Shown: positions 7,968-35,046 of the stretch, in pieces | Numbering within the stretch: the first letter of the stretch is position 1 | Layout of the letters: each line of letters opens with the position of its first letter | Assembly (NCBI GenBank): GCA_017510225.1 | Contig: JAFWNS010000016.1 | Coordinates: forward strand, 1-48,548 | Direction of reading: 5' to 3' | From: Bacilli bacterium | GTDB lineage: Bacteria > Bacillota_I > Bacilli_A > RF39 > UBA660 | Length of the DNA stretch: 48,548 nucleotides | Translations under genes and position numbers: made by a program | Notes under the pieces: model-generated | What the model saw: only the letters and a program-made list of their open reading frames with translations | Databases searched by the model: none | What the model was told of the DNA's origin: nothing

Positions 7968-7983
7968 GCATCAAAAAAGGAAG

Positions 7984-8628
7984 TTATTTACTTCCTATAG
8001 TATTTTCTTTTTCATTAGTATCATCTTGTTTATTAAACATTTCCTTTAATTCATTATTTTTCTCTCTTTGACTTCTAACATATTCTGTATGTTCTTTCAT
8101 TGCTTCTTCATATGTTTTATCACTTATACCATAAGCTATTGGCATTAATCTCTCAATAAGATCTTCTTTATAAGGTTCTTCTCTAAAATGTCTAGCCATT
8201 GAAAAGCCCATAAGTTCATTTAGTTTTCTGAAAGCTTTAAAAGTATCTATAATCTTTCCAAAAAACTTATGTGGTTTTGTTTCCTCTTTTGTACGTGGAA
8301 GAATATCTTTATCTATATTCTTTCCTTCTTTAAGAACTTTTATTCTATCTATATATTCTTTATAATTTCCTTCCTCTAAAAACTTTTTACCTATATTACT
8401 AGTAATCATATTATTAAAGTTTTCTCTTAAATCAATATACTCTTTATACTCATCAGATTCATGATCTATATTATCTAATATATCTTCCATTTCTATACTA
8501 TCTTTATCTAAAGATTCTAATATATTAATTATATTATCATAATTATTAGTTCTAAATAAATCTTTTATTCTAATAGTAGATTGTTTTATTCTTTCATTAT
8601 AATCAATAAGTCTTTTATTTTTTTCCAT
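7984..8628 (-). CDS. Orphan helical protein (214 aa) with C-terminal ELKEMF motif
   Basis: RBS AGGAG, upstream TGTTATAAT; no recognisable family. Confidence 0.8.
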   Translation of the reverse strand: MEKNKRLIDYNERIKQSTIRIKDLFRTNNYDNIINILESLDKDSIEMEDILDNIDHESDEYKEYIDLRENFNNMITSNIGKKFLEEGNYKEYIDRIKVLKEGKNIDKDILPRTKEETKPHKFFGKIIDTFKAFRKLNELMGFSMARHFREEPYKEDLIERLMPIAYGISDKTYEEAMKEHTEYVRSQREKNNELKEMFNKQDDTNEKENTIGSK

Positions 8629-8693: not shown

Positions 8694-10181
8694 CTACATT
8701 CTTCTTCCGCTTGTTATTTCAAAATCATCAGTATCATCATTTTCTTCAGCAAGCATACCCTCTAATTCAGAACCAGATTCTGGTTGATTAGGATTTATAT
8801 GAACTTCTTCATCATCATACTCTTCACTATCATATTCATTATCATATTCTTCACTGTCATATTCATCATCATAAGGTATTTCATCATCTTCAAACATTTC
8901 AGGTTTTTCTGTTAAATATTCTCTATAAGTTTGCTCAAATCTATCAATTAATGTATGTGAATATCTATTTCTTAATTCGTCACCTTTTTCTCCATGAAGA
9001 TCATTAATAACTTGTTTGAATTCTTCTGGTGGTAACATCCAAATCATTGCTTGAACATCTACTGCATCATCAAGATCTACCCAAGATGATCTAACCCATC
9101 CTGATAATTTCTTAACTGTATTCTTAACTAAAGATACTCCTGCAGTAAGAACATTGAATCCAAATACTCCTTCTTTTAAATCTTTATGGAATTCTTTACC
9201 TAATTTAATATTTCTAGCTTTATATTTTTTATCTGATTTTTTATCTATTGGTACAATTCTCTTCATTTGATCTAATATTTCTTCTGTTGATCTAATCTCT
9301 CTTCTTTCTTCTTGTTCATTTTGTTCGTTTGGAGTATTGTCATTCTCATTCTCAACTTCATCTTCATTCTCATTATTATTTTCGCTTCCATATTGATCTT
9401 CTGCTTCTATCTGATTTATTTTTTCTTGATCTTGCTTGATTTCTTCATTTATTTTTTCATATTCAGCTTCCAATCTAGCTCTTTCTTCTTCTGGTGTTTC
9501 TTCTTCATCTTCACTATTAGATGAATCCCCAGAATCTGATGTAGATGAATTTTCTACTGCTTCTTTATTCTTTTCTTCTTCATCTTCTTCTACTTCTTCA
9601 TTATCTGCTGAATCATTATTATCTTCATCTGTAGAATTATCACCAGGAGTTTCTACAACTTCTTCTTTATTATCATTTTCTTTTGCTTTTTCTTCTTCTT
9701 TTTCATTTTCTATTTCTGTTTGATCTTCTTTTTTGTTTTCTAATTCAGCCATAATACTTTCAGGAACTATTTTATTTATTTCATCTAATAGTTCTTGTTG
9801 ATACTTTTTGCAGCCTTCAATTATATTAGCATAATCTTCTTTTAAATAGTCAGTTGGAGCATTTTCTTTTTCTTTTTTATATTCTTCTATCTTTTTATTA
9901 TATTCTTCTATTATATTAAATTTATCTTCAACTTCTTTTTGTATTTTCTTAGCATTTTCTATATCATTATTTATTTCATCACTAACATCATACAAATGAC
10001 TATTTTGTATTATTTCACTACTAACGTAGTCTCCTCCTACTTCACGCTCACCAACTTCATTATCATTAGGTCTATTTGCAATTATTTCATCATTAGCTGC
10101 AATTTGATCCTCAATTTTCTTTAATGATTCTTCCAAATTAGCTATATAATTATCGAATTCTTGATTATAATCTTCTAACAT
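8694..10181 (-). CDS. Very acidic coiled-coil orphan (495 aa), paralog of 10525..13179
   Basis: Shared block KIEEY...ENAPT..LK..Y...IE..KKYQ.ELL..IN...PES.MA; RBS GGAGTG; upstream TGATATAAT. Confidence 0.85.
   Translation of the reverse strand: MLEDYNQEFDNYIANLEESLKKIEDQIAANDEIIANRPNDNEVGEREVGGDYVSSEIIQNSHLYDVSDEINNDIENAKKIQKEVEDKFNIIEEYNKKIEEYKKEKENAPTDYLKEDYANIIEGCKKYQQELLDEINKIVPESIMAELENKKEDQTEIENEKEEEKAKENDNKEEVVETPGDNSTDEDNNDSADNEEVEEDEEEKNKEAVENSSTSDSGDSSNSEDEEETPEEERARLEAEYEKINEEIKQDQEKINQIEAEDQYGSENNNENEDEVENENDNTPNEQNEQEERREIRSTEEILDQMKRIVPIDKKSDKKYKARNIKLGKEFHKDLKEGVFGFNVLTAGVSLVKNTVKKLSGWVRSSWVDLDDAVDVQAMIWMLPPEEFKQVINDLHGEKGDELRNRYSHTLIDRFEQTYREYLTEKPEMFEDDEIPYDDEYDSEEYDNEYDSEEYDDEEVHINPNQPESGSELEGMLAEENDDTDDFEITSGRRM
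8814..8867. repeat. 2 x 27-bp tandem repeat encoding (D/N)EYDSEEYD
   Basis: ATCATACTCTTCACTATCATATTCATT / ATCATATTCTTCACTGTCATATTCATC. Confidence 0.8.
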
Positions 10182-10231
10182 TTTATCACTCCATTTGTCA
10201 ATTTTTTATATTATATCACATTTGATATATT

Positions 10232-10510
10232 TTAACCATATTTTTCTTGTATTTGACTTACAATATCTTTTACAAGTTCCATTTCTTTTGGATCAGTTAT
10301 ATCTTCGAACTTTTCAGGTCCAAATAATGGATCATATTTTGATACATATATATTTAATTCTCCATTAGGACCAGTTGTATTATCAGTATAACCAATAATA
10401 GGTTTATCTACGTCTCCTCCATCATATGTAAATAATAAATCACATACAGTAGGTTTTCCATCAATTATAAGTTCTAATTTTTCATCTTGAATATCTTCAA
10501 ATTCACTCAT
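10232..10510 (-). CDS. DUF1292 (YrzB-like) small acidic protein
   Basis: DG....CD.LFT......K..IGYTD.....G..NIY.S.YD......I....EM.LV pattern; RBS GGAGG. Confidence 0.8.
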   Translation of the reverse strand: MSEFEDIQDEKLELIIDGKPTVCDLLFTYDGGDVDKPIIGYTDNTTGPNGELNIYVSKYDPLFGPEKFEDITDPKEMELVKDIVSQIQEKYG

Positions 10511-10524
10511 ATATATCCTCCTAA

Positions 10525-13179
10525 TTACATAGCTGCTTGATATTCATAGTCATCAGTCTTTTCATCATCTTCATCAAGCATAGTATTCATTTCTTTTTTC
10601 TTCTCTCGTTCTGCTTTTTTTCTAGCAGATTCTTCTAGTATATTTTCAAGGTCTCCATTAGTAACTGCTATAATACTCTCTAACTCTTCTCTTTCTTCTT
10701 CTGTTAAATCTTCTATGTTTTTACCTTTCGTTATTTCTTGAACCCTTCTATTATTATCTCCCATCACAGTTGCATTTAAGAATGCCATAATTGTAGGAAA
10801 AATAACAGGTTGTATATCAGGTGCTGCTGTAAGTAAAGTTTGAATCTCTGGAATTTTAGCAACTGTAGTTTCTGTTAATTGTGTACCAATTTTATATACT
10901 GATCTAAAACTACTAACCATATCACTCATGAATGAAGTCGGATTATTTACAATGTCCTGTAACACTTGTATTTGTGGATCATAGTCAAATCGTCCTTTAT
11001 AGAATTTATCAGCTCTCATAAATTTTGTTATAATATCTGGTATTTGTGATGTAATAGTTTTTGTTGTTTGATCTACAATATGTTGTACGTGGCCAAATAT
11101 GCCATCTGCTGGAAGATTCTTAGAATAGTTTGTTATACCGTGATTTATTCTGTATAGTGTTTCAACAGTATCATGAGCTCCTCCAGGACCAGTATCTGCT
11201 AGTCTATATCCTGAACTACCTATTGGGTTCTTAGGATCAAATGCATTACCATACTCAACTACACCCTGATGATTTACATTATCATATTGTAATTGTTGTT
11301 CTACTTTAGGAGCTAATTTGTTTGGATCAGTAATATTTTGTATTTGTCCTCCTTGAGCTCTAACGTTTTTAGCAACAGCTTCATTATATTGATTACCAGC
11401 ATTTATATCGTGATTTCCTCTATTTATTTCACCTTTTTGTGCAATGTATTCTGATTCAACTCGTTTTGCTTCCATCATATTACTTACATTTTGGTAAATA
11501 GATACACCAATAGCTACTTCTGTACCTATTGCCATAAAGTATCTAAGTAGTGGATCATTTCTGAAATCTAACATTTCTGGCATAACTTTATACTTATAAC
11601 TTCCAGATTCTGCCATTCCAAAAATTGTTCTTTTCTGTTTAGTATTCTCTTGTTTATACATTTCATTTTCAACGAAAACTTTGATAGCTCCTAAATCATC
11701 GCCTGCATCAATGGCTTTATTTAGTTTTTTGATTTTTGCTTCCATTTCGTTATTAAACTCATCAACAGCAGCATCTTTTAAATTAGTTCTTTTACTAAAT
11801 ATTTTTCCTTGTTGATTTTGCTGAGATTTTATTGCTTTAGAAATTTCAGCTAATGAATGCATGCCATCTCCATGCATATTCCTATCTAATTGTCTTCTGT
11901 CCTCCAATAGTTTTTTTACTTTTTCTGTTGCTCCTTCAGACAATTCTTTTATTTCTGCTTCTATTTGTTTACGTTCCTGTGGGTCTTTTGTTTCTTCTAA
12001 TTTTACTTTTAAATCTTCTATTTTATCATATCTACCTATTATATCAGTATATAAGGATGAAATTTCTAATCTAAGTGGAGCGTTTTTCTTCTTTTCTATA
12101 TATTCTGATAACTTCTGCATTACTAATGGCATAATCGGCTGAAAAGACCTCATGCTATTTGCTTCTGAACCAGTTAACTCCTTATATAAAATTTCCATTT
12201 CTTCATCACTTAAATTATCTAGTTTTTTTGCTATTTCATCATATGTTTTTGCATCAGATGGATGAAAAATTCTTAGAAATTTGTTAATTCCTTTATATGC
12301 AATACTTCCAGCAGTAAATAAAAGTCCAGCTCCTACTCCTGCAACATTATATATAGTATTGTGATGCGATATTAAATCCTTCATAGTATTAGTAACACTC
12401 AAACGTGATTTTTCAACAACATTAGATCGTGTAATAGTGAAATCATATGGTTTTCCATCTTCATCTCTTATTACAGAATTTAGAATTTCATAAGCTGATT
12501 TTCTAACTTTCTTTGCATTAGTTTCAATGTTTTCGTTTTGTTCTGGAGTTACTTTTATTGGTCTTGGTTGTTTTTCAATTTTTACTTCTTCTTCTTTAGG
12601 TTCTTTTACTTCAACACCTAATTCTTTTAATCTATCTTCTATTTCTTTCTTTCTTTTTTCTTTTTCTTCTATACTTCTCTTTAATCTTTCTCTTTCTGGT
12701 TCTTCCTTTACTTCTTCTTTATTTTCTTCTTTTCTATCTTCTTCTACTTTGTTTTCATCTGTTTCTTTTTCATTATTATCTTCTTTGTTTCCTTCTAATC
12801 TTTCATTAATAGCAGCCATTACACTTTCAGGCATTTTTCCATTTATTCTATTTAATAATTCTTTTTGATACTTCTTAAAATCTTCTATTAATTGACCATA
12901 ACCATTTTTTAGATGCTCTGTCGGAGCATTTTCCATACGTTTAGTATAATCTTCTATTTTTCTATTATACTTTTCTATTTCTGCGAAAATATCCCTTATT
13001 TCTTGTTCACTTGCTCTTAGATTTTCTATTTCTTGTCTAAGCGCTTCTGCCTCATTTTCTAACCATTTATTATGGTCTAAATCATCAGATATAGCATTAT
13101 TTGGATTTTCATACTCTTCCAATCTTGCTTCTAATTCTTCTATATACTTTTCTAATTCTTCCGTATATATTCCTAACAT
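10525..13179 (-). CDS. Large orphan coiled-coil protein (884 aa) with internal hydrophobic segments
   Basis: Long ORF starting 2 nt after the upstream DUF1292 stop; no signal peptide; homologous to 8694..10181. Confidence 0.85.
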   Translation of the reverse strand: MLGIYTEELEKYIEELEARLEEYENPNNAISDDLDHNKWLENEAEALRQEIENLRASEQEIRDIFAEIEKYNRKIEDYTKRMENAPTEHLKNGYGQLIEDFKKYQKELLNRINGKMPESVMAAINERLEGNKEDNNEKETDENKVEEDRKEENKEEVKEEPERERLKRSIEEKEKRKKEIEDRLKELGVEVKEPKEEEVKIEKQPRPIKVTPEQNENIETNAKKVRKSAYEILNSVIRDEDGKPYDFTITRSNVVEKSRLSVTNTMKDLISHHNTIYNVAGVGAGLLFTAGSIAYKGINKFLRIFHPSDAKTYDEIAKKLDNLSDEEMEILYKELTGSEANSMRSFQPIMPLVMQKLSEYIEKKKNAPLRLEISSLYTDIIGRYDKIEDLKVKLEETKDPQERKQIEAEIKELSEGATEKVKKLLEDRRQLDRNMHGDGMHSLAEISKAIKSQQNQQGKIFSKRTNLKDAAVDEFNNEMEAKIKKLNKAIDAGDDLGAIKVFVENEMYKQENTKQKRTIFGMAESGSYKYKVMPEMLDFRNDPLLRYFMAIGTEVAIGVSIYQNVSNMMEAKRVESEYIAQKGEINRGNHDINAGNQYNEAVAKNVRAQGGQIQNITDPNKLAPKVEQQLQYDNVNHQGVVEYGNAFDPKNPIGSSGYRLADTGPGGAHDTVETLYRINHGITNYSKNLPADGIFGHVQHIVDQTTKTITSQIPDIITKFMRADKFYKGRFDYDPQIQVLQDIVNNPTSFMSDMVSSFRSVYKIGTQLTETTVAKIPEIQTLLTAAPDIQPVIFPTIMAFLNATVMGDNNRRVQEITKGKNIEDLTEEEREELESIIAVTNGDLENILEESARKKAEREKKKEMNTMLDEDDEKTDDYEYQAAM

Positions 13180-13181
13180 AA

Positions 13182-13466
13182 TTATTCTCCTAACTGAACT
13201 GCTTCATCAATTTGTTCTAATACTTCTTGAACTAATTTCATCTCTTCTTCTGTCTTAATATTTTCTAATTGATCATTATCTTTTGATCTATCATATGAAC
13301 CTACATATATATTTTTTCTACCATTAGATCCAAATGATCCATCACTATAACCAACATATAATTTATTAGTATCATCACCCTCAAAAGTAAATAATACATC
13401 GCATTCTACTTCTTTACCATCTTTAATTATTGTAATTTTTTCATCTTTATCCAAAAATTCCATCAA
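13182..13466 (-). CDS. DUF1292 (YrzB-like) small acidic protein
   Basis: DGKEVECDVLFTFE.DDTNK.YV.YSD...NIYV..YD...LENI.TEEEMKLVQEVL; RBS AAGGAGG. Confidence 0.85.
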   Translation of the reverse strand: MMEFLDKDEKITIIKDGKEVECDVLFTFEGDDTNKLYVGYSDGSFGSNGRKNIYVGSYDRSKDNDQLENIKTEEEMKLVQEVLEQIDEAVQLGE

Positions 13467-13525: not shown

Positions 13526-13984
13526 TTAACTGTCAATATTTACATCAATATTTACATTGTTTACATCTTTTGTCTTTATATGTAATTTATATAATGTATT
13601 TTCTTTCTTTTTACCAGCAACTTTTAATTTAACTTCATTCTTACTATTTAATAAATTCTTTTTATCTTTTTCCTTAAATAATTCTAATTTAGTATCATCA
13701 TTACATATAAATCCCATTTTATATTTAACATCTTTTTTAGCGACTTTTTTATTTCTATAATTAATTATTCTAATAACATAATACATTTCATTATTCTTTA
13801 GCTTTTTAGCTTCTACTCTAAAGTCTATATTTAATTTATCTTTTTCTATTGGTACAACAATATCTGCTTTTTCTTTAGTTTTACTACTTACTTTTAAACT
13901 TATTAATTTAATTACTAATCCTAATACTAATATTAATAATAATATAAATATTACTAATAAAACTTTCTTTGGTATCTTTTTCAT
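13526..13984 (-). CDS. Membrane-anchored Lys-rich beta-type protein, unknown function
   Basis: N-terminal basic plus hydrophobic helix; RBS GGAGG. Confidence 0.75.
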   Translation of the reverse strand: MKKIPKKVLLVIFILLLILVLGLVIKLISLKVSSKTKEKADIVVPIEKDKLNIDFRVEAKKLKNNEMYYVIRIINYRNKKVAKKDVKYKMGFICNDDTKLELFKEKDKKNLLNSKNEVKLKVAGKKKENTLYKLHIKTKDVNNVNIDVNIDS

Positions 13985-13992
13985 ATATCCTC

Positions 13993-15312
13993 CTACTTAA
14001 TTACCTTATCTATAATATCTTTTATTTTATTCTCTATTTGTTTTTTATTCTCTTTAGGTAAACTACTAGCTAATTTAGATTCTGATACATCGACTCTTAT
14101 CTTCTTAGCTTTAACTATTGTATTATTAAAATTAATAAGTATATTATAAATTCCTGTATTATCTTTTTCTCCATTAAGAGATATATTTATATTCTTTTTA
14201 TATTTTTTCTTATTTACTTTATGTTTACTAATATTTATAGAAACAGTATTTTTTAAACCTCTATCTTTTATGTAAAATACTATCTTCTTTTTATTTTTCT
14301 TTCTAGATAAACTGAAATTACCTATCTTAGTATCTTTTTTATTATAAATATTAATATTTAATCTTTTTTCTTTATTAGAAATATCTCCTCTAAATCTTAT
14401 ATTATTATTTCTATATAATTTAAATTCATTATCTTTATATATTAATTTATATTTATTATACTTGATTTCATACTTATTAGGACTATAAGTAAATCTATCT
14501 GTATATATAGTTATATATAGTTTTTTATCTTTCTTTAAAAAGTTAATATCTTTTACTTTCTTTTTAAAGAAATCTCTATCAAAACCCTTTATTATTTCTT
14601 TAGCTTTTTTATCCTCTTTTAAATCATCTAATGTATCTTTATAAGTTTCATTTAATCTTTTATTATCTAATACTAAAGTTATCTTAGTATAGTTATTATT
14701 CTCTTGCTTAGAAAAATATTTATCATCTAAGTTCTTTATAAAATATTTATTGAAAGTATCTTTTAAATATATTAAATTATTAGTTTCTTTAGTATCACTA
14801 TTTAATGTTTCAAAATATGTATTATTACCATTATTTATATAAGTATCAGTTATATCATTTATATAATAATACTCTGTATTATCTTTTATTAAATATTTAC
14901 CTGTTATTAAATCTTTCTTATTAACAGTACTATTATAATCTATATATAATTCTTTGTTTTTTCTATTAGAAGTGTAATTTATATTAGCTTTTGTATTATT
15001 ATAATTAGTTATTAAATTAGTTATAATTTCATAGTATTTATTATTATATTTTTTATTATCTTCTATCTTACCTGTTGTATTAATACTTAAATTAGATACA
15101 AGAGTAAAATTTTTAAATTCTGATTCAAGTTCTTCTATATTAGAAAATGAACTAGTTAAATTATTGATTGATTCTAAAAATATTCTTTTGGAATTACTTA
15201 AATATAATAGATAAGTACCTAATAATATTACTATAATACTAATTACTATTAATATTTCTATAATCCTTCTATTAATTGGTTTTTTCTTTTTCTTCTTAGC
15301 CATAATTTTCAC
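13993..15312 (-). CDS. Membrane-anchored Lys/Asn-rich protein, unknown function (likely start ATG 15303)
   Basis: Poly-Lys N-terminus then TM helix; beta-rich extracellular region. Confidence 0.75.
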   Translation of the reverse strand: MKIMAKKKKKKPINRRIIEILIVISIIVILLGTYLLYLSNSKRIFLESINNLTSSFSNIEELESEFKNFTLVSNLSINTTGKIEDNKKYNNKYYEIITNLITNYNNTKANINYTSNRKNKELYIDYNSTVNKKDLITGKYLIKDNTEYYYINDITDTYINNGNNTYFETLNSDTKETNNLIYLKDTFNKYFIKNLDDKYFSKQENNNYTKITLVLDNKRLNETYKDTLDDLKEDKKAKEIIKGFDRDFFKKKVKDINFLKKDKKLYITIYTDRFTYSPNKYEIKYNKYKLIYKDNEFKLYRNNNIRFRGDISNKEKRLNINIYNKKDTKIGNFSLSRKKNKKKIVFYIKDRGLKNTVSINISKHKVNKKKYKKNINISLNGEKDNTGIYNILINFNNTIVKAKKIRVDVSESKLASSLPKENKKQIENKIKDIIDKVIK

Positions 15313-15367
15313 TCCTATTATATATACTAAATTATATCAAAAAAAAAGAGATTTGTCGATTATCTCT

Positions 15368-15871
15368 TTAATTAATATTGGATGTTAAAATAGTTATTTG
15401 ATATATAAAATCTTTAGATAAAATATTCTTATTTGGAGATAGAACATTAAGTTCTAATTCTATTTCATCTCCTGGTTCTATTACTTCTCCTACAATGTCA
15501 TTATATTTTATAGTTACAAGATCTTTTGAGTAATTAGTTCTTTCGATAATATTATCTATTTGAGCAGATAAACTACCAGTATTTTTTATAACTATTATAT
15601 AAGATACTGAGTCTTTATTATTCTTTAGATTTAATGAAAACTTAGCCGTTTTCTTATTATCAGTTATTTCAGAGTTGGTTGTAATATGTTTATTAGAACC
15701 ATTAATAACATTACCTTTTATTATTTTAGTAATATTTACTTCATATTTTTCTTTTGTTTTCTTTACAGAATTATATCTCATAGATAAATATATAAAACCT
15801 ATACCTACAAATACTATAGTTATACTTAAAAGTAATATTATAGTTGTTTCTAGTTTTATTTTTTCTCTCAT
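15368..15871 (-). CDS. Membrane-anchored Ig-like beta-sandwich protein
   Basis: Start MREKIK after RBS GAGGGG; TM helix; Y.IVIKNTG...A.I and IEPGD.I.L.L.V motifs. Confidence 0.7.
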   Translation of the reverse strand: MREKIKLETTIILLLSITIVFVGIGFIYLSMRYNSVKKTKEKYEVNITKIIKGNVINGSNKHITTNSEITDNKKTAKFSLNLKNNKDSVSYIIVIKNTGSLSAQIDNIIERTNYSKDLVTIKYNDIVGEVIEPGDEIELELNVLSPNKNILSKDFIYQITILTSNIN

Positions 15872-15872
15872 A

Positions 15873-16709
15873 TTAACACTTCCCCTCTTTAGAACTATTA
15901 TTTTGATAACAGAATGAATATATATCTTTATCAATAGTAAATTTTATATATGCATAAACTTTACTATCTTTTATGTAATACCAGCTATCAGAATCAGGAT
16001 ATAAATTATTATAAGCAGGTATATCACTTATTTTAATATTATTACCATTAATATCTTGATTAACTATATTATTAGATTTTTGATATTTAAGTAATTTATT
16101 ATATATATTATCTGCATATTCTTTTATCTTTTCTTTAGATAATTTTACAGTTTTTTTAGATTTTTTGTTTTTATTATTCAATATATCTTGTGAGTATATA
16201 CTTAAATTTATTAGTATTCTACTTTCTTTAGTATCTTTAAATTTAAATTCTTTACCTTTTGTTTTTAATTTACTTTTCTTTATATTTATTTTTATATTAT
16301 TATTTTTCTTTATAATCTTTTTAGTGCTTTTTACTAATTTATACTTATCATAGATAATAATATTTAAAGACTTAGAAATAGGTTTAGTTTTATTAAATTC
16401 TTTTATAGTATTTTTAAGTACTACTTTATAATTTTTGTTTTTATATTTTATATTACCTATAAATGTAGATTTATCATTTAGACATAATGTAGTTAATACT
16501 TTGTTTTTATCATCTACTACGATAGCAAAGTCTTCTCCACTATCATAGTTAAATTCTATCATAGTTTTATAGTTTTTATATTGTGCAATATTTTCTAATC
16601 CATGTTTTTTTAATTCTTTTGGTAATTCTTTACTTAGTTTATAGCCGCAAAAACCTATAATAATTAGAATTATTACTAATATTTTTAATCCTTCTTTATG
16701 TTTCTTCAT
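15873..16709 (-). CDS. Membrane-anchored protein with weak similarity to the RsgI-type extracellular domain
   Basis: TM helix; FAIVVD.KNKV....CLN.. resembles the RsgI juxtamembrane domain; weak. Confidence 0.55.
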   Translation of the reverse strand: MKKHKEGLKILVIILIIIGFCGYKLSKELPKELKKHGLENIAQYKNYKTMIEFNYDSGEDFAIVVDDKNKVLTTLCLNDKSTFIGNIKYKNKNYKVVLKNTIKEFNKTKPISKSLNIIIYDKYKLVKSTKKIIKKNNNIKINIKKSKLKTKGKEFKFKDTKESRILINLSIYSQDILNNKNKKSKKTVKLSKEKIKEYADNIYNKLLKYQKSNNIVNQDINGNNIKISDIPAYNNLYPDSDSWYYIKDSKVYAYIKFTIDKDIYSFCYQNNSSKEGKC

Positions 16710-16720
16710 ATAAAATACCT

Positions 16721-18865
16721 CTAACTAGAAAATTTAGGTTTTAATGTTAGTTTAATTTCCATACCTTTAGTTATTTCAGTATTAGGACTAATACTTTGAT
16801 TAGTAACATAACCTACTCCATCTAATTTAACTTTTATACCTAGTAATTCTAATATATCTTTTGCTACTTTAGAAGATAGTCCTTTTACATTAGGTACTTT
16901 TTGATGGGAATCGTTTGTTATTAAATAGACTATATCTTTAGTAGTAATAGTTTTCTTAGCACTTGGATATTGTTTAATTACTTTATTTCCTTTACCAATT
17001 ACTTGGTATTTAATACCATTACTATTTAATATATTTTGAACTGTATCTAGTTTTTTATTTACTAAACTAGGTAATTTATAATCTTTTACTTCTATTCCTT
17101 TTGCAGGTTTATCATGACCATAGTATTTAGATACATTATTAACTATATCTTTAACTGCATTAGATAATGGTGTTTGACTTCCACCTGCTGGTTTTTTAAC
17201 TGAAGCATATATAATTATTTGAGGATTACTCTTTGGGTATATTCCAGAAAATGATGCGATTACATTATGTTTCCCTTCTTCATATCCTGCACCATGTTTT
17301 TTAGCTATTTGGGCAGTTCCTGTTTTACCAATTAATTCTCCGCTTTCAATTCTAAAACCACTACCTGTATTGCCTAGACCATTAACACAATCATTCATTA
17401 AACTAATCATCTTACTAACAGTCTGTGAAGAAGCAACTCTTTCTATAGTTTTTCTTTTATTTTTTAAAACAACTTCTTTAGTATCTGGATCTACTATTTT
17501 ATCTACTATATATGGTTCTAGTACCATTCCATCATTAGTAAGTGGTGATAGAGCTTTTACATTTTGTATAGGTGTTGTCGTAATACCTTGACCGAATCCA
17601 GCATTATATATTTCTGTTTCATATTTAAAATCTATACTACCTGCATCTTCATATGGTAAAGTTATACCTGTTTTTCTTCCAAAACCTAATCTTTTAAAAT
17701 ATTTTCTTAGCATAATACTACTCATATGGCGATTAATTAAGTTAATAACTCCAACGTTACTACTCATAGCATAACCTTTATCGAAAGTTATATCACCCCA
17801 ACCAGTACGATCCCAGTCACCTATTTCTGTTCCATCTTTAGTTTTATATACTCCTGAGTGATATGTTTCTGAACCATTATAAACACCATTTTCCATAGCT
17901 GCCATATAAGTAAATGTTTTCATAGTTGATCCTGGTTCATATGGAGAAGATACTAAATAATCTAAATAATTTTTCATATCTTTTTTATTTGGATCAAATG
18001 ATGGAGATGTTGAAGTTGCGAGTATTGCACCTGTTTTAGCATCCATTATAGTTATATGAAACCATTCAAATCCATAAGTAGTTTTAGCTGTTTGAATAGC
18101 TTGTTCTACAAAGAATTGTATATTACTATCAATTGTTAAATAGATATCTTTTCCTTGTGTAGCATCTTTTTTATCTACTTTAGTATCAGCTATCTTATAA
18201 CCTTTTAAGTCTTTTTGATAAGTAATATATCCTTCTTCTCCTCGTAATATCTTATCATAATACTTCTCTATACCCATTTCTCCTGTAGTATCTTCATTAT
18301 TGTTATCATCTACTGATGTAGTGGCATATCCAATTGTATATGAAGCAAAATCTCCTTTAGGATAATATCTTTTATAACTTTCTACAAAATCTAATCCTGG
18401 TAGATTTAAATCCATTATTTTATTCTTAGTTATTTCATTTAATCCTCTACCTTTAGAACCAAATTCAACTTGATATACTCCTTCTTTACTTAACTTCTTT
18501 AATATATCCATTTTAGACATTCCAAGTATAGGAGCTAGTGCTTCTGCAGTTTCTTCTTTATTAACTACATGTTGTGGTTTTTTCTTATTAGTAGTTCTTT
18601 TAGGATCTAAATAAGCAATTAATTTATAGGAAGCAACATTTTGAGCTAAAGCATCTTTGTTTTTAGAATAAATACTTCCTCTTTCAGATGGTATTATTTC
18701 TTTTTTAGTAGTTCTCTGACTAGCTAATTTCTTTAAATTGATTCCATCTATATTAGTAGATAAACCTAATTGTAATAATCTTAAAATCATTATAGCAAAC
18801 AAAAAAAGAGAAAATAGTATAACAATCTTAGAATATTTTATATTATTTCTCTTTTTCTTTCCCAT
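16721..18865 (-). CDS. pbpB: Class B penicillin-binding protein with two PASTA domains (PBP2B/FtsI-like)
   Basis: RG.I, KRYYP, EPGSTMK (SxxK), SSN, GKTGTAQ; two C-terminal PASTA repeats; follows ftsL. Confidence 0.92.
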   Translation of the reverse strand: MGKKKRNNIKYSKIVILFSLFLFAIMILRLLQLGLSTNIDGINLKKLASQRTTKKEIIPSERGSIYSKNKDALAQNVASYKLIAYLDPKRTTNKKKPQHVVNKEETAEALAPILGMSKMDILKKLSKEGVYQVEFGSKGRGLNEITKNKIMDLNLPGLDFVESYKRYYPKGDFASYTIGYATTSVDDNNNEDTTGEMGIEKYYDKILRGEEGYITYQKDLKGYKIADTKVDKKDATQGKDIYLTIDSNIQFFVEQAIQTAKTTYGFEWFHITIMDAKTGAILATSTSPSFDPNKKDMKNYLDYLVSSPYEPGSTMKTFTYMAAMENGVYNGSETYHSGVYKTKDGTEIGDWDRTGWGDITFDKGYAMSSNVGVINLINRHMSSIMLRKYFKRLGFGRKTGITLPYEDAGSIDFKYETEIYNAGFGQGITTTPIQNVKALSPLTNDGMVLEPYIVDKIVDPDTKEVVLKNKRKTIERVASSQTVSKMISLMNDCVNGLGNTGSGFRIESGELIGKTGTAQIAKKHGAGYEEGKHNVIASFSGIYPKSNPQIIIYASVKKPAGGSQTPLSNAVKDIVNNVSKYYGHDKPAKGIEVKDYKLPSLVNKKLDTVQNILNSNGIKYQVIGKGNKVIKQYPSAKKTITTKDIVYLITNDSHQKVPNVKGLSSKVAKDILELLGIKVKLDGVGYVTNQSISPNTEITKGMEIKLTLKPKFSS

Positions 18866-18879
18866 AAATAAATCACGTC

Positions 18880-19179
18880 CTATTTATCCTCAGTTACTGT
18901 CTTTATATTATTATTATTATAACTCAATCCTTCCGTTTCTGCAACTTCTTGTATCTTAGTAAGTGAGGCTAACTCATTTATAGTCATAGCTAAACTCTCA
19001 TTAGTCTTTTGTTGCTTTTCAATCTTTTGTTTTTGCTTTTCTACTTGATAGTTAACACTAGCAAGTGTTGCTTTAGAAAAAACAATCGATACTGGAGATA
19101 CCACCAATAAAAAAATTGCTAAAGTATATATTAATCTTTCAAATTTTGACATTTTTAACCTCTTCTTTACTTTTCTCAT
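18880..19179 (-). CDS. ftsL: Cell division protein FtsL
   Basis: Basic N-terminus, TM, coiled coil, EL.S...I...A...GL; lies between rsmH and pbp. Confidence 0.9.
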   Translation of the reverse strand: MRKVKKRLKMSKFERLIYTLAIFLLVVSPVSIVFSKATLASVNYQVEKQKQKIEKQQKTNESLAMTINELASLTKIQEVAETEGLSYNNNNIKTVTEDK

Positions 19180-19193
19180 ATTTTATCTCCCTC

Positions 19194-20123
19194 TCATTTT
19201 ATTTTTTCTATTACTCTAAGCTTTGCACTTCTAGAGCGTGGATTATTTTCTATTTCTTCTAAACTAGGCTTTATGGCCTTATTTATGACTAATTTAAAAC
19301 TAGGTAGATATTCTTCTGGTATGTTAGGGAGTCCTTGTACTCTTTTATCTACCAAAGTTTTTTCTTTAAATATATTTTTTACAATTCTATCTTCTAAAGA
19401 ATGAAATGTAATTACTGCAATTCTTCCACCTACTTTAATTAAATCTAGAGCTTGTTCTAGAGCTATAGGAATAACATCTAATTCTTTATTTACTTCTATT
19501 CTTATAGCTTGAAATATCTGCTTAGCCGGATGCTTATCTACTCTAAATTTCATAGGTACAGCAGTCTTTATAATATCAACTAATTCTAAAGTAGACTCTA
19601 TTTCTTTTTCTTCTCTATACTCTACTATTTTCTTAGCTATGTTTCTAGCAAACTTAGCTTCTCCATACTTACTAAATATATTAGTTAATTCTTCTTTAGA
19701 ATAGTTATTAACAATTTTCTTTGCACTTATAGGATTATCTTTATCCATTCTCATATCAAGTGGTGCATCTTTATGATATGAAAAACCTCTACTAGAATCA
19801 TCTAGTTGTGGAGAAGATACTCCTAAATCAAATAAAATACTATCTACTTCGTATACATCTTTTTTATTTAACTCTTCCTTTAAATTCTTAAAGTTACTTT
19901 TAATGATAGTGAAGTTAGTACCAATAGACTTAAGTCTATCAGTACTATGCCGAATTGCTTCACTATCTTGGTCGAAGGCGAATAAGTGCCCCCTAGATAT
20001 TCTTTTCAAGATGCAACTACTGTGTCCACCATAGCCTAATGTACAATCTACAACAATACTATCTTCTTTTAAGTTTAACGCTTCAATAGATTCGTTTTTA
20101 AGCACACTAATATGTTTTTCCAT
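19194..20123 (-). CDS. rsmH: 16S rRNA m4C1402 methyltransferase
   Basis: HISVL, DCTLGYGGHS, DLGVSSPQLD, PLDMRM, FHSLEDR, NPRSRSAKLR. Confidence 0.97.
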   Translation of the reverse strand: MEKHISVLKNESIEALNLKEDSIVVDCTLGYGGHSSCILKRISRGHLFAFDQDSEAIRHSTDRLKSIGTNFTIIKSNFKNLKEELNKKDVYEVDSILFDLGVSSPQLDDSSRGFSYHKDAPLDMRMDKDNPISAKKIVNNYSKEELTNIFSKYGEAKFARNIAKKIVEYREEKEIESTLELVDIIKTAVPMKFRVDKHPAKQIFQAIRIEVNKELDVIPIALEQALDLIKVGGRIAVITFHSLEDRIVKNIFKEKTLVDKRVQGLPNIPEEYLPSFKLVINKAIKPSLEEIENNPRSRSAKLRVIEKIK

Positions 20124-20560
20124 TATAGATCGACGCTCGCATTAAATAAATTTTCAGCTATGTCAGACATGTTGTCCTTAGCAGAATCGAAATAAGCATT
20201 CCATAAATCTTTAGACCATATTTCTAACCGATCTCCTGTACCAATAACAACACAATCTTTCTTGATGTCGGCATAAGAGATTAAAGGGGAGGTAATATTA
20301 ATACGACCTTGCTTATCAAACTCTGCCACAGTGGCACCAGATAAAAAGAAACGAGTAAAACTACGGGCATCTTTTTTTGTAAAAGGTAGAGTTTCTAGTT
20401 TATCTACTATCTTGTCAAAAGATTTTTTAGGGTAAACAAAAAGACAATGTTCAATACCACGAGTAACTATGAATTCGTTACCTAAATCTTTTCTAAATTT
20501 AGAAGGAATTATAAGTCTTCCTTTATCATCAATAGAATGATGATATTCTCCCATAAACAT
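20123..20560 (-). CDS. mraZ: Transcriptional regulator MraZ
   Basis: MFMGEY.H.IDDKGR, DKQGRI, RLEIW; true start ATG at 20560. Confidence 0.97.
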   Translation of the reverse strand: MFMGEYHHSIDDKGRLIIPSKFRKDLGNEFIVTRGIEHCLFVYPKKSFDKIVDKLETLPFTKKDARSFTRFFLSGATVAEFDKQGRINITSPLISYADIKKDCVVIGTGDRLEIWSKDLWNAYFDSAKDNMSDIAENLFNASVDL

Positions 20561-20566
20561 AGAAAT

Positions 20567-20594
20567 CCCCCACTTTCTACCACTTGTCACCACT
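20567..20594 (-). promoter_or_regulatory. MraZ-binding direct repeats
   Basis: AGTGGTGACA-AGTGGTAGAA-AGTGGGG: three GTGG boxes with 10-bp period directly upstream of mraZ. Confidence 0.85.
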
Positions 20595-33147: not shown

Positions 33148-35046
33148 CTATTTATTTTTTTCTATTGGTTCATATACTGTACCAGTAAACCATACTTCAC
33201 CACTATTTTTATCTCTTATTATAAACATATATGGTTTATCAAATGTTAAATCTATTTTTTCTATTGGTACATCAAATAAGTAATCAAATCCTCCACTTGT
33301 AGAACCTAATCCACCCATCTCAGTTGCGGCAGCAGCTTTAATTCCATCATTAGAGAATTCTATATTAGCCTTATGAGAAGCACTATCTATAAAAGCTTCT
33401 TTCTTAGTTAAATTAGATAAATCTGCTTTACCTTCTTCAAATACATTTTTAATTCCTAATTTCTGTAAATCTTTCTTTAATTCTAAAGTATAATCAAATT
33501 TAAAGAATGGTATATATCCTTTAATTATAGTAACTACTCCATCTTTAAAACTTTCCTTTTTTAATTCTTTTAAATTCTTTATAATCTTATTTAATTTCTT
33601 TGCATTAGTTTTTTCTACATATTTATCTAAATCTTCATTTTTAGGCATAATACCTACATATTGTAGAGTAGTTCCATCATATGTTTTTAAATCTTTAGCA
33701 AATACTTTTACATTTTTATCATCATGGAATAAGAAATCCGATGATTTATCTGATTTATTATAATTTTCTTTTAGATCTTTAATAAATCCATCTACATATT
33801 TATCTACATCTTTTTCTTCTGGATTATCATTTGTCCAATTCTTTCCATCCTCAGTATTTAACCATTTTTTATACTCATCACTAACTGTTTTTCTTATTTT
33901 ATCTTCTCCTAATTCTTTAACGATATTATAACGGTTATATACTGCACCTATTTCTGCAGATTTAATATTATCTTTACCATCAAATTTTAATGAGTGATAG
34001 TCAGATTCATCAAATATTATAGGTATAGCCCATGTAAATCTGTATCCATCTTCACCTTTTTCGTGATCATATCCTCCACCATAATCTAGGCATTGTACTT
34101 TACTTCCACTAGCACATTGAATTTGATAATTCCAATTCATATCAATCGCTAAAGCATTAGTAAGTACGAAATCATATTTAGAAACACTATCATCAAATAA
34201 ATCTTTTATTAAATTAAATGTTTTTTCACTAACCCATTTATTTAGAGCATCTGGTGTTTTAAATGAATCATATATAACTTCTGCATTATATTTTTCTTTT
34301 AAATTATCTGTATATTCTACTTTTACTGAATCTTTATAACTATCTTTTATAAACATAGCATTTGCGAAAGACATATTCTTATTATTATTGTATTTTTTAG
34401 CTTTATAGTCACCTATAATATCTGTAATTTGATCTTTTGAATCTCCATTAGCTCCTTCTTTTAACATCGCTAATGCATATTTAATTGAAAGTGGACTATA
34501 TATTTTATTATTATCTTTATTTTCTATTTGTAAAAACTTTAAATCAAAATCAGTTAAATCATTACTAGAAATTCTATAAGCTGATTGTTTTTCTGGTGTT
34601 GTTACTGATTCTTTTTGTGAATTAGTTAAATAGAAATATACTCCTACTCCAATTCCAACTAGTAATAAAAGTATAATAAATACTATTATTGGTTTCTTTT
34701 TACCTTTCTTCTTTGGTTTATCAGTAGCATCACCTACTTCTTCTATTGTAGAACTCGGAAGTGTCTCATTAAGTGTTGTTTCTATAGGTGTCGTGTTTTC
34801 TACTGATGTTTCTTCTACTGTAGGTAATTCCTCTACCGGATTCTCTGCTGGTATATTTGGTTCCTCTATAGTACTTTCTCCTACTGGAGTTTCCTCTGGT
34901 ATAGTTGATTCCTCTACAGTACTTTCTTCTGCTGGTGTTTCCCCTGTTTCAGTATTTTCTACTGGTTCCTCTAATACTTCTTCTTTTTCTTCTAGCACTT
35001 CTTCTACTTCATCATCTAATACCTCTGGTTTATTTTCTTCTTCCAT
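33148..35046 (-). CDS. Membrane-anchored serpin with acidic repetitive N-terminal region
   Basis: YSPLSI..AL.ML..GA, N.WV...T...I, NALAI...W, ADLSNL, HKA.IEF...GIKAAAAT hinge, FDKPYMFIIRD....WF.G.V..P. Confidence 0.9.
   Translation of the reverse strand: MEEENKPEVLDDEVEEVLEEKEEVLEEPVENTETGETPAEESTVEESTIPEETPVGESTIEEPNIPAENPVEELPTVEETSVENTTPIETTLNETLPSSTIEEVGDATDKPKKKGKKKPIIVFIILLLLVGIGVGVYFYLTNSQKESVTTPEKQSAYRISSNDLTDFDLKFLQIENKDNNKIYSPLSIKYALAMLKEGANGDSKDQITDIIGDYKAKKYNNNKNMSFANAMFIKDSYKDSVKVEYTDNLKEKYNAEVIYDSFKTPDALNKWVSEKTFNLIKDLFDDSVSKYDFVLTNALAIDMNWNYQIQCASGSKVQCLDYGGGYDHEKGEDGYRFTWAIPIIFDESDYHSLKFDGKDNIKSAEIGAVYNRYNIVKELGEDKIRKTVSDEYKKWLNTEDGKNWTNDNPEEKDVDKYVDGFIKDLKENYNKSDKSSDFLFHDDKNVKVFAKDLKTYDGTTLQYVGIMPKNEDLDKYVEKTNAKKLNKIIKNLKELKKESFKDGVVTIIKGYIPFFKFDYTLELKKDLQKLGIKNVFEEGKADLSNLTKKEAFIDSASHKANIEFSNDGIKAAAATEMGGLGSTSGGFDYLFDVPIEKIDLTFDKPYMFIIRDKNSGEVWFTGTVYEPIEKNK

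Follow-up and report, generated by a model that had tools for sequence, protein, structure and literature searches.

A conserved pair of a DUF1292 gene and the gene of a large helical protein in an uncultured lineage of gut Bacilli, duplicated in tandem in one species

The window analysed here is a stretch of 48,548 nucleotides (GenBank assembly GCA_017510225.1, contig JAFWNS010000016.1) from an uncultured Bacilli bacterium (GTDB RF39, UBA660), and corresponds to contig C3 of its own genome (850 kb, 64% complete, ~25% G+C). On its minus strand two cassettes follow each other, each consisting of a small gene of the DUF1292 family and the gene of a large protein, namely D1 with BIG884 and D2 with BIG495. 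A first-pass annotation of the same DNA had reported four open reading frames (ORFs) in the order DUF1292, 884 aa, DUF1292 and 495 aa, and all four were confirmed at its coordinates:

13182-13466, minus strand: D1, a DUF1292 protein of the 'D1 type', 94 aa, net charge -13 (Pfam PF06949, E 1.2e-7)
10525-13179, minus strand: BIG884, full-length member of the large family, 884 aa, net charge -37 (phmmer, profile, AlphaFold2)
10232-10510, minus strand: D2, divergent DUF1292 paralog, 92 aa (45% identity to D1, E 2e-25)
8694-10181, minus strand: BIG495, truncated paralog of BIG884, 495 aa, net charge -96, 31% Asp+Glu (BLAST and family profile)

The start codon of D1 is TTG, with an ATG one codon further in, and its stop codon ends 2 nt ahead of the ATG of BIG884, with a GGAG lying within the last D1 codons. 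The junction between the cassettes (10039-10572) is spanned by near-identical contigs from four runs of four studies, which excludes an assembly error as the source of the tandem order; the contigs of these four data sets are fragmented, of low depth and near-identical in sequence, and show no structural variants. The stretch is present in animal gut metagenomes of 12 studies, and the listed data sets that carry it include no RNA data set.

Linkage of the two genes and their neighbourhood

The association between DUF1292 and the large gene was counted from both sides. A DUF1292 gene lies directly upstream of the large gene in 17/17 fetched loci of the family, comprising 12 loci from 11 genomes of seven genera, the loci of G001, G002 and G005, and both copies in the own genome. 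Those 11 were the matching genomes when the family profile was run against 150 other sampled genomes of the order; all belong to the window's own family, in which the large protein is patchily distributed (11/149 sampled genomes). From the opposite side, a scan with D1 limited to one genome per species returned 70 loci, all in uncultured gut or rumen bins labelled as Bacilli, 'Mycoplasma sp. CAG:877', Tenericutes, Erysipelotrichaceae or Candidatus Faecimonas intestinavium. In 69/70 of them the D1-type gene, which encodes an acidic protein of ~90 aa, is followed by an ORF on the same strand that begins at -25 to +24 nt. Thirteen downstream ORFs were cut by the contig end, and 53 of the 57 complete ones matched the large-family profile; the remaining four encode a shorter protein in three cases (365, 583 and 588 aa) and a distant DUF1292 in one. 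The two counts overlap, with at least four of the 70 genomes already included in the 17-locus count.

Homologs of the large protein are thus consistently found beside DUF1292, rather than mostly without it, the outcome which the first-pass annotation had named as refuting its idea, and the two genes form a real, conserved two-gene module of an uncultured, small-genome lineage of gut Bacilli, as the first-pass annotation had proposed. In G079, G121, G088 and G096 the pair occurs in different neighbourhoods, yet the two genes are still together.

In the window, the pair belongs to a co-oriented row on the minus strand which runs through mraZ, rsmH, an ftsL/divIC-like gene, pbp2B, four membrane-protein genes, D1, BIG884, D2, BIG495 and P214. 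The remaining features of this row are as follows:

16721..20593, minus strand: mraZ (156 aa), rsmH (309 aa), ftsL/divIC-like gene (99 aa) and pbp2B (714 aa), with Pfam matches to MraZ, Methyltransf_5, DivIC, and Transpeptidase, PBP_dimer and PASTA
13526..16709, minus strand: four genes between pbp2B and D1, whose products carry an N-terminal hydrophobic helix (152, 439, 188 and 278 aa; ORFs)
7984..8628, minus strand: P214, an orphan of 214 aa, the final gene ahead of the terminator (ORF)
7978..7996, minus strand: terminator-like hairpin directly 3' of P214 (pattern scan)

The stretch from mraZ to pbp2B is the start of a division and cell-wall cluster, and the module usually lies behind pbp2B and the four membrane-protein genes, at least one homolog of which was found upstream of the pair in 60/70 loci. 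No further terminator-like site was detected by the pattern scan of the minus strand between 7996 and 20681. The four membrane-protein genes match no Pfam or NCBIfam family above cut-off. The 278-aa product (15873-16709, minus strand) shows a sub-threshold match to Epsilon_antitox (E 9.1e-5, 23.2 bits vs a cut-off of 25) and another, also sub-threshold, to choline-binding repeats, both probably due to chance or composition. Elsewhere in the window, a 632-aa protein with a serpin domain (33148-35046, minus strand; Pfam E 2.3e-46) adjoins ftsW/rodA.

The closest relative, G003 (68% identity in the fast-changing 439-aa neighbour), retains the four membrane-protein genes and is without the pair at the syntenic place, which makes the pair dispensable. 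At the position of P214, G003 has only a 99-aa ORF whose C-terminal end is similar to P214. P214 itself has no homolog by phmmer (E <= 0.01) in the ORF sets of loci L010-L154 and of the own genome, nor any match above cut-off in Pfam, NCBIfam, PHROGs or PADLOC, and may or may not belong to the unit. Elsewhere in G003 (locus L024, C1 4965-5883), an 85-aa DUF1292-like ORF overlaps the start of a 225-aa helical ORF; this ORF pair sits between MYG1-like and glutathione peroxidase genes, and the same place is empty in the window.

The two protein families and the tandem duplication

D1 matches the Pfam family DUF1292 (PF06949) with 32.9 bits, above the gathering cut-off of 24 bits. D2 gives no Pfam match at E <= 0.1, and its PRK13678 matches in NCBIfam are all sub-threshold; it is assigned to the DUF1292 family only through its 45% identity to D1 across 89 residues (E 2e-25), a similarity by which the two are evidently paralogs, in agreement with the first-pass annotation. 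D1 is a typical member of its own clade, being 70% identical to its ortholog in G002 and grouped in the tree with G002 and G001 (support 97/96); the branch of D2 is long and unresolved. The pattern G-[RK]-[KRE]-[NRKT]-[IV] is present in 66/70 D1-type proteins and reads NGRKNIY in D1 and NGELNIY in D2, which has lost the G-R-K motif of the clade.

The AlphaFold2 model of D1 (pLDDT 78.4, pTM 0.63) comprises four strands and a C-terminal helix, i.e. a four-stranded sheet or small barrel plus helix. Fold searches detected a weak likeness to small barrels of the SH3, Tudor and chromo type (best Z 5.7, VIA; rmsd 2.7, 50 aligned residues), the best Foldseek hit was not significant (E 0.054), and the nearest structural cluster in the ESM Atlas was DUF1292 itself (TM 0.76). 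Searched by sequence, solved structures gave no match below E 0.01 to D1, to BIG884 or to profiles of each.

The known relative is YrzB/UPF0473 (PF06949) of Bacillus, Listeria, Staphylococcus and Enterococcus, located in the order ireB-ruvX-DUF1292-mltG. D1 resembles it in size, acidity, predicted strands-plus-helix build and Pfam score; however, D1 and D2 occupy another locus, behind pbp2B and four membrane-protein genes rather than between ruvX and mltG, they form a clade of their own with the G-R-K-N-I-Y motif, and the gene downstream encodes a large unnamed protein instead of MltG. The ruvX-DUF1292-mltG neighbourhood is typical of the DUF1292 family without being part of its definition, and the own genome also keeps a canonical DUF1292 between ruvX and mltG, on contig C35. 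Full-text literature searches turned up neither a published function for DUF1292 nor a paper on the pair; a table in one article lists yrzB as a 'putative anti-sigma factor' (PMC3814617).

From N- to C-terminus, BIG884 consists of a helical region (1-133), an acidic linker (~134-223), a helical domain conserved across the family (224-812) and an acidic tail. BIG495 shares the N-terminal helical region and likewise ends in an acidic tail, but its acidic linker is longer and its conserved domain stops after the first ~130 positions. The two align at 38% identity across the N-terminal 184 residues (BLAST, E 2e-17), and a profile built without BIG495 matches it at positions 4-134 only (E 8.8e-7). 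Of the collinear blocks that the first-pass annotation had listed for the two proteins, the N-terminal ones are borne out by BLAST; the others are not significant in pairwise BLAST, but MAFFT aligns them collinearly, and they fall in the first part of the conserved domain. The difference of ~480 aa at the C-terminus was likewise real, but it is no extension of BIG884: it corresponds to the rest of the conserved domain, of which BIG495 is missing ~430 positions. BIG884 has the full, ancestral build of the family, and BIG495 is an old truncated copy. As previously stated for both, no Sec signal is seen, the N-termini reading as acidic helices without a hydrophobic signal-like stretch.

Neither large protein matches anything above cut-off in Pfam, NCBIfam, PHROGs or PADLOC, and the nine locus proteins hit 0 families of PADLOC-DB 2.0 at E <= 0.01, a library that covers systems described by 2023. 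The label of orphans holds to this extent only, since relatives are numerous. The family profile A2 (561 positions) was built from four sequences, BIG884 residues 224-812 and three same-genus orthologs, so that the score of BIG884 against it is circular; run against 1.84 billion representative proteins, it matched 304 clusters at E <= 1e-3, 193 of them at E <= 1e-30. By phmmer, BIG884 itself matches same-genus proteins of 946 and 1140 aa (E 4.7e-27 and 1.5e-24). Among 41 related genomes it found three matching genomes besides its own, one of which, G020, gave a weak hit (E 5.9e-4) that was not counted as a member, and a word-based search of 5.8 billion proteins returned one relative only, P0002 (857 aa, 52% identity). 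Short fragments aside, the conserved domain lies near the C-terminal end in nearly all listed family proteins, which measure ~750-2000 aa and have N-terminal parts of widely differing length. On this comparison, the C-terminal ~560 residues define an unnamed protein family: the only name on record is 'hypothetical protein', from Bacillota or Mycoplasmatota metagenome bins, and a Pfam scan of 26 family proteins gave nothing credible. The absence of PHROG matches below E 0.005, together with the conserved synteny, spoke against an origin resembling a phage tape-measure protein.

AlphaFold2 models BIG884 as all-helical apart from one hairpin (overall pLDDT 73.1), with confidence at residues 1-130, a bundle of long helices (pLDDT 81-94), and at 224-550 (pLDDT ~78-98), and poorly for the linker and much of 556-884. 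Searches with the whole 884-residue model gave nothing significant (best Z 9.4, a generic helical hairpin in the N-terminal part; best Foldseek E 0.087) and barely probed the central domain 224-550; the ESM Atlas returned unnamed clusters only. Across 50 members, three weakly hydrophobic segments recur at conserved positions, with Kyte-Doolittle means over 19 residues of 1.2-1.87; most are below the usual level of a membrane helix, and BIG884 itself reaches a maximum of 1.43, its first segment being at 276. At the C-terminus, 50 family members (BIG884 at window 10525-10600) share a conserved YGNE.T.M..EY motif followed by an acidic tail of ~20 residues, which often ends in a basic residue and small ones (...RAA, ...KAA, ...KAV; BIG884 ...YQAAM) and resembles a C-terminal degradation or recognition tag. 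The start of members P0019, P0020, P0068 and P0098 resembles helices II-III of a J-domain (...LLGIDPN..SE.ELK.A...), without the HPD motif; the locus copy of P0019, the only one of the four scanned, has no match to Pfam DnaJ.

The two cassettes go back to a tandem duplication of the module long ago. The complete build is retained in the first of them; from the second, most of the conserved domain is gone, and D2 has drifted. Comparison of the DNA showed nothing beyond low-complexity repeats of the GAA type and one 33-nt match at 82%, with no sign of recent duplication, so that either the duplication is old or the second copy drifted quickly. D2, BIG884 and BIG495 all lie on long, unresolved branches, and the trees do not date the event. 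No other locus of the 70 has two large-family genes, and the tandem arrangement, which the first-pass annotation had treated as a feature of the system, is peculiar to the window's species among those examined.

Under one alternative, D2 and BIG495 would be a decaying, non-functional remnant and the 'system' in the window a single pair. The loss of ~430 positions of the conserved domain in BIG495, the loss of the clade motif and the failed Pfam match in D2, the position of both on the longest branches, and the lack of a second large-family gene at the other loci of the 70-locus set all point that way. Even so, a frame of 495 codons has stayed open in DNA of ~26% G+C, the same order recurs almost unchanged in the contigs of four runs from four studies, and short forms comparable to BIG495 persist elsewhere, two of them (367 and 387 aa) in two other species and another of 381 aa, each with its own DUF1292, which argues that the short form may work. 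We consider decay unlikely on balance, although it is the likeliest of the alternatives.

The evolutionary rate of the locus is uneven. Median identity of relatives to the window proteins is 68% for PBP2B, 54.5% for D1, 29-32% for the four membrane proteins and 23.5% for the BIG884 domain, and BLAST finds no counterpart to residues 1-223 of BIG884 in any of the 70 loci. In other species (22 loci), the large-family domain has a mean pairwise identity of 40%, vs 29% for the 439-aa neighbour; the domain is therefore not unusually fast there, and the acceleration is specific to the window's lineage. Compared with BIG884, P0002 is 100% identical over residues 1-120, 88-95% to 240, 38-62% to 560 and 10-32% to 840. 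This sharp mosaic suggests recombination and rests on one strain comparison; strain variants were not found in metagenomes of the JGI with an exact 26-nt pattern or a 240-aa protein query. Together with the long branches, the mosaic lends some support to the description of the module as 'diversifying'.

Possible roles of the pair

The DUF1292 gene of the pair is not the only one of its kind. The own genome has six DUF1292-like genes, one canonical (ireB-ruvX-DUF1292-mltG) and five that each precede the gene of an unnamed acidic or helical protein. Besides the two cassettes of the window, these include:

Own genome, behind a yutD-like gene: DUF1292 with a 402-aa partner
Own genome, behind rpoA-rplQ: DUF1292 with a 119-aa partner
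Own genome, behind a cysteine desulfurase-like gene: DUF1292 with a 445-aa partner
C35:1626-3459, C46:1216-2846 and C47:4079-4703 of the own genome: coordinates of the three further pair loci, which recur in G001-G005

The gene ahead of the first of these is one which we take to be yutD-like. The three partners contain 14-40% Asp+Glu, some being also rich in Lys/Arg, and have no Pfam family. In G001-G005 (genus g1), five of 20 DUF1292 ORFs are canonical, 14 are followed by a partner -7 to +19 nt downstream, and the remaining one is at the end of a contig. In other genera of the family and in G025, from the sister family, 14/14 non-canonical copies with downstream DNA precede a partner that starts at -16 to +23 nt; for one further copy the available DNA shows no ORF downstream. 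Every non-canonical paralog for which such DNA was available is joined to a different large acidic protein. The order yutD-like gene, DUF1292, partner is kept in many genera of the family. Among 30 downstream genes scanned with Pfam, 27 were without a family above cut-off and three were MltG. The partner families are unrelated to one another, the large family and the yutD-locus partners being aligned by hhalign with a probability of 0.5%. The idea of a motif shared between partner families was abandoned, an ad hoc basic-motif pattern having matched one family and BIG495 only. Outside the family, 13 genomes of other families of the class have 13/15 DUF1292 ORFs behind ruvX and none with such a partner.

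We tentatively favour, at somewhat less than an even chance, a reading in which the pair couples a dedicated small binding partner to an accessory, envelope-associated helical scaffold, as drawn from translational coupling, the fidelity of paralogs to their partners, and the gene neighbourhood. The DUF1292 protein would be made just ahead of its partner through coupled translation and would act as a dedicated binding partner, a holder or adaptor, of the large, highly charged helical protein; the latter would be a non-essential scaffold associated with the envelope, tied to the membrane via its weakly hydrophobic helices and working alongside the co-oriented septal wall-synthesis genes. The other DUF1292 paralogs would serve acidic partners of their own, unrelated to this one, in the same way. 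Binding is proposed because the linkage holds when counted from both sides, because of the spacing between D1 and BIG884, and because the paralogs have partners of their own. The envelope link is drawn from the common strand with pbp2B, the lack of a terminator-like site before the end of P214, the shared context in 60/70 loci and the conserved hydrophobic segments, and the non-essential character from the absence of the pair in G003 and the short forms in several species. The interpretation offered by the first-pass annotation, a diversifying module in which a dedicated DUF1292 binds its cognate partner, is thus supported in part, for the two-gene module but not for orphan status or for duplication as a trait of the system.

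Several results weigh against the binding and scaffold reading. The congruence of partner phylogenies, which the first-pass annotation had put forward as a check, showed no specific signal in a mirror-tree comparison of 22 loci, with r(D,BIG) at 0.56, r(BIG, 439-aa protein) at 0.69 and r(D, 439-aa protein) at 0.41. D1 is well conserved (median 54.5%), whereas the N-terminal 223 residues of BIG884 are without a match in the 70 loci, so that any docking at the N-terminus would need to depend on structure and not on a specific sequence. Most of the hydrophobic segments fall short of membrane level; the segments carry positive charges on both sides, and the model places them within helices of a soluble-looking domain. 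Genes for EzrA, DivIVA and GpsB-like proteins are ordinary in all five genomes of the genus and encoded elsewhere, the sharp strain mosaic is unusual for a cytoplasmic housekeeping scaffold, and the gene neighbourhood does not by itself show a division role.

The scaffolds of Firmicutes to which BIG884 may be compared are EzrA, DivIVA/GpsB and MapZ, which share with it a long helical build, weak features of membrane association and a gene that runs in the same direction as ftsL and pbp2B. Unlike them, BIG884 has no sequence or fold match, and the pair is dispensable in G003; neither BIG884 nor BIG495 matches PF06160 or PF05103. Replacement of a missing division scaffold by the large protein was ruled out, EzrA, DivIVA and GpsB-like proteins all being present.

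The two genes could instead be linked without any binding, either sharing an operon for expression only, e.g. with the small ORF setting the translation rate of the long one, or serving one pathway without contact. Tight spacing or overlap in 69/70 loci fits pure translational coupling equally well, the co-evolution signal does not exceed that of the neighbours, and the canonical DUF1292 between ruvX and mltG is similarly spaced, with no binding known to us for that protein. A leader ORF that only couples translation would not, however, need a protein conservation of 54%. A distinct, conserved D1-type clade with its own motif accompanies the large family, and each paralog keeps its own partner family across the genus, as specific pairs would. 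Linkage without contact is accordingly judged improbable.

A less probable proposal still, and one we regard as rather doubtful, is that the conserved domain is inserted in the membrane and partly exposed outside the cell, for example as a surface antigen or as a receptor or decoy for phages, that diversifying selection, loss and truncation have shaped it, and that DUF1292 serves its cytoplasmic part. The mosaic with P0002 does break at about residue 240, just ahead of the first hydrophobic segment at 276, though it comes from a single strain comparison (n=1), and no segment of BIG884 reaches clear membrane-helix hydropathy (maximum 1.43), the first one being flanked by positive charges on both sides. 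The patchy distribution (11/149 family genomes), the loss of the pair in G003, the recurrence of truncated forms and the very long branches of both large copies would suit an exposed protein; a domain with a mean pairwise identity of 40% in other species, against 29% for the 439-aa neighbour, would not, and searches of PADLOC and PHROGs were empty.

Equally doubtful is export or insertion of the large protein by a type VII-like EssC ATPase, with DUF1292 keeping it competent for secretion or targeting it. The own genome encodes an EssC-type protein of 1537 aa with FHA and FtsK/SpoIIIE domains on contig C30, in the following locus:

C30:2722-8035 of the own genome: type VII-like locus (L084) with the EssC-type gene, an 85-aa ORF and small ORFs of 64 and 76 aa

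The 85-aa ORF behind the EssC-type gene is presumably YukD-like, although it has no Pfam match, and genes for EssB or EsaA were not recognised among the listed ORFs of the contig. EssC-type genes, at times in two or three copies, occur in 77 of the 149 other genomes sampled from the family, and in 10/11 genomes with the large protein vs 67/138 without it. This co-occurrence is confounded by descent and is not independent evidence, because the pair-bearing genomes are simply the nearest relatives, as are the genomes with the closest EssC.

The pair resembles type VIIb substrates with small partners (LXG toxins with Lap/DUF3130-type helpers, WXG100 pairs) in having a small gene directly ahead of a large protein without signal peptide and with a helical N-terminus, in the EssC-like ATPase of the genome, and in an N-terminus that is constant and a remainder that varies between strains; the hydrophobic segments of the large proteins may be added to these features. 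It differs from them in its position away from the EssC locus, in the lack of a conserved downstream immunity-like gene, of which none was found, and in a variable part of BIG884 that stays homologous instead of being swapped for another domain. D1, D2, BIG884 and BIG495 have no WXG100 or LXG match in Pfam at E <= 0.1; the fold search with BIG884 gave only generic helical hairpins (best Z 9.4), which leaves room for a distant LXG/WXG100 likeness. Type VII chaperones are helical, and the DUF1292 model is predicted to be mostly strands.

The two loci are also physically apart. In the own genome EssC is on C30 and the pair on C3; in G002 they are >270 kb apart on one contig (421-597 kb vs 146 kb); in G000, G064, G088 and G103 they are on different contigs; and in G079 the pair is present and EssC was not found at E 1e-40. 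In none of the genomes in which both can be placed does the pair lie near EssC. One DUF1292 gene does adjoin EssC, in G022, where a protein with a Cys-rich insert is encoded 84 nt upstream of it, but such adjacency was seen in only one of ~12 genomes checked by coordinates. This gene (L066, G022:C21, 4986-5342, minus strand) encodes a 118-aa DUF1292 with many CxC and CxxC, on the same strand as the EssC-type gene.

Extended from the pair to the whole family, the binding reading would make DUF1292 a family of paralog-specific holders or adaptors, supplied co-translationally to long, highly charged, helical or disordered clients, with each paralog in these gut Bacilli having captured its own client, either the large family or one of at least three further unnamed acidic families at the yutD, rplQ and cysteine-desulfurase loci, and canonical YrzB of Bacillus, Listeria and Staphylococcus acting in the same way on an unrecognised one, perhaps MltG or the IreB pathway. 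This generalisation is speculative and, in our judgement, improbable as it stands. The lineage nevertheless constitutes a natural experiment, with five or six DUF1292 paralogs per 1-Mb genome, and its sets of paralogs and partners make the proposition that DUF1292 binds a specific large client directly testable. Should binding fail, what stays is a well-defined conserved pair rather than a new mechanism. The analysis also brings to light an unnamed protein family, with no fewer than 304 sequence clusters, whose genes lie beside the septal wall-synthesis genes of uncultured bacteria abundant in gut and rumen. Should the generalisation be true, it would provide the first function for DUF1292/YrzB, a protein conserved across Firmicutes, including major pathogens, and encoded in the ireB-ruvX-mltG cluster of wall regulation.

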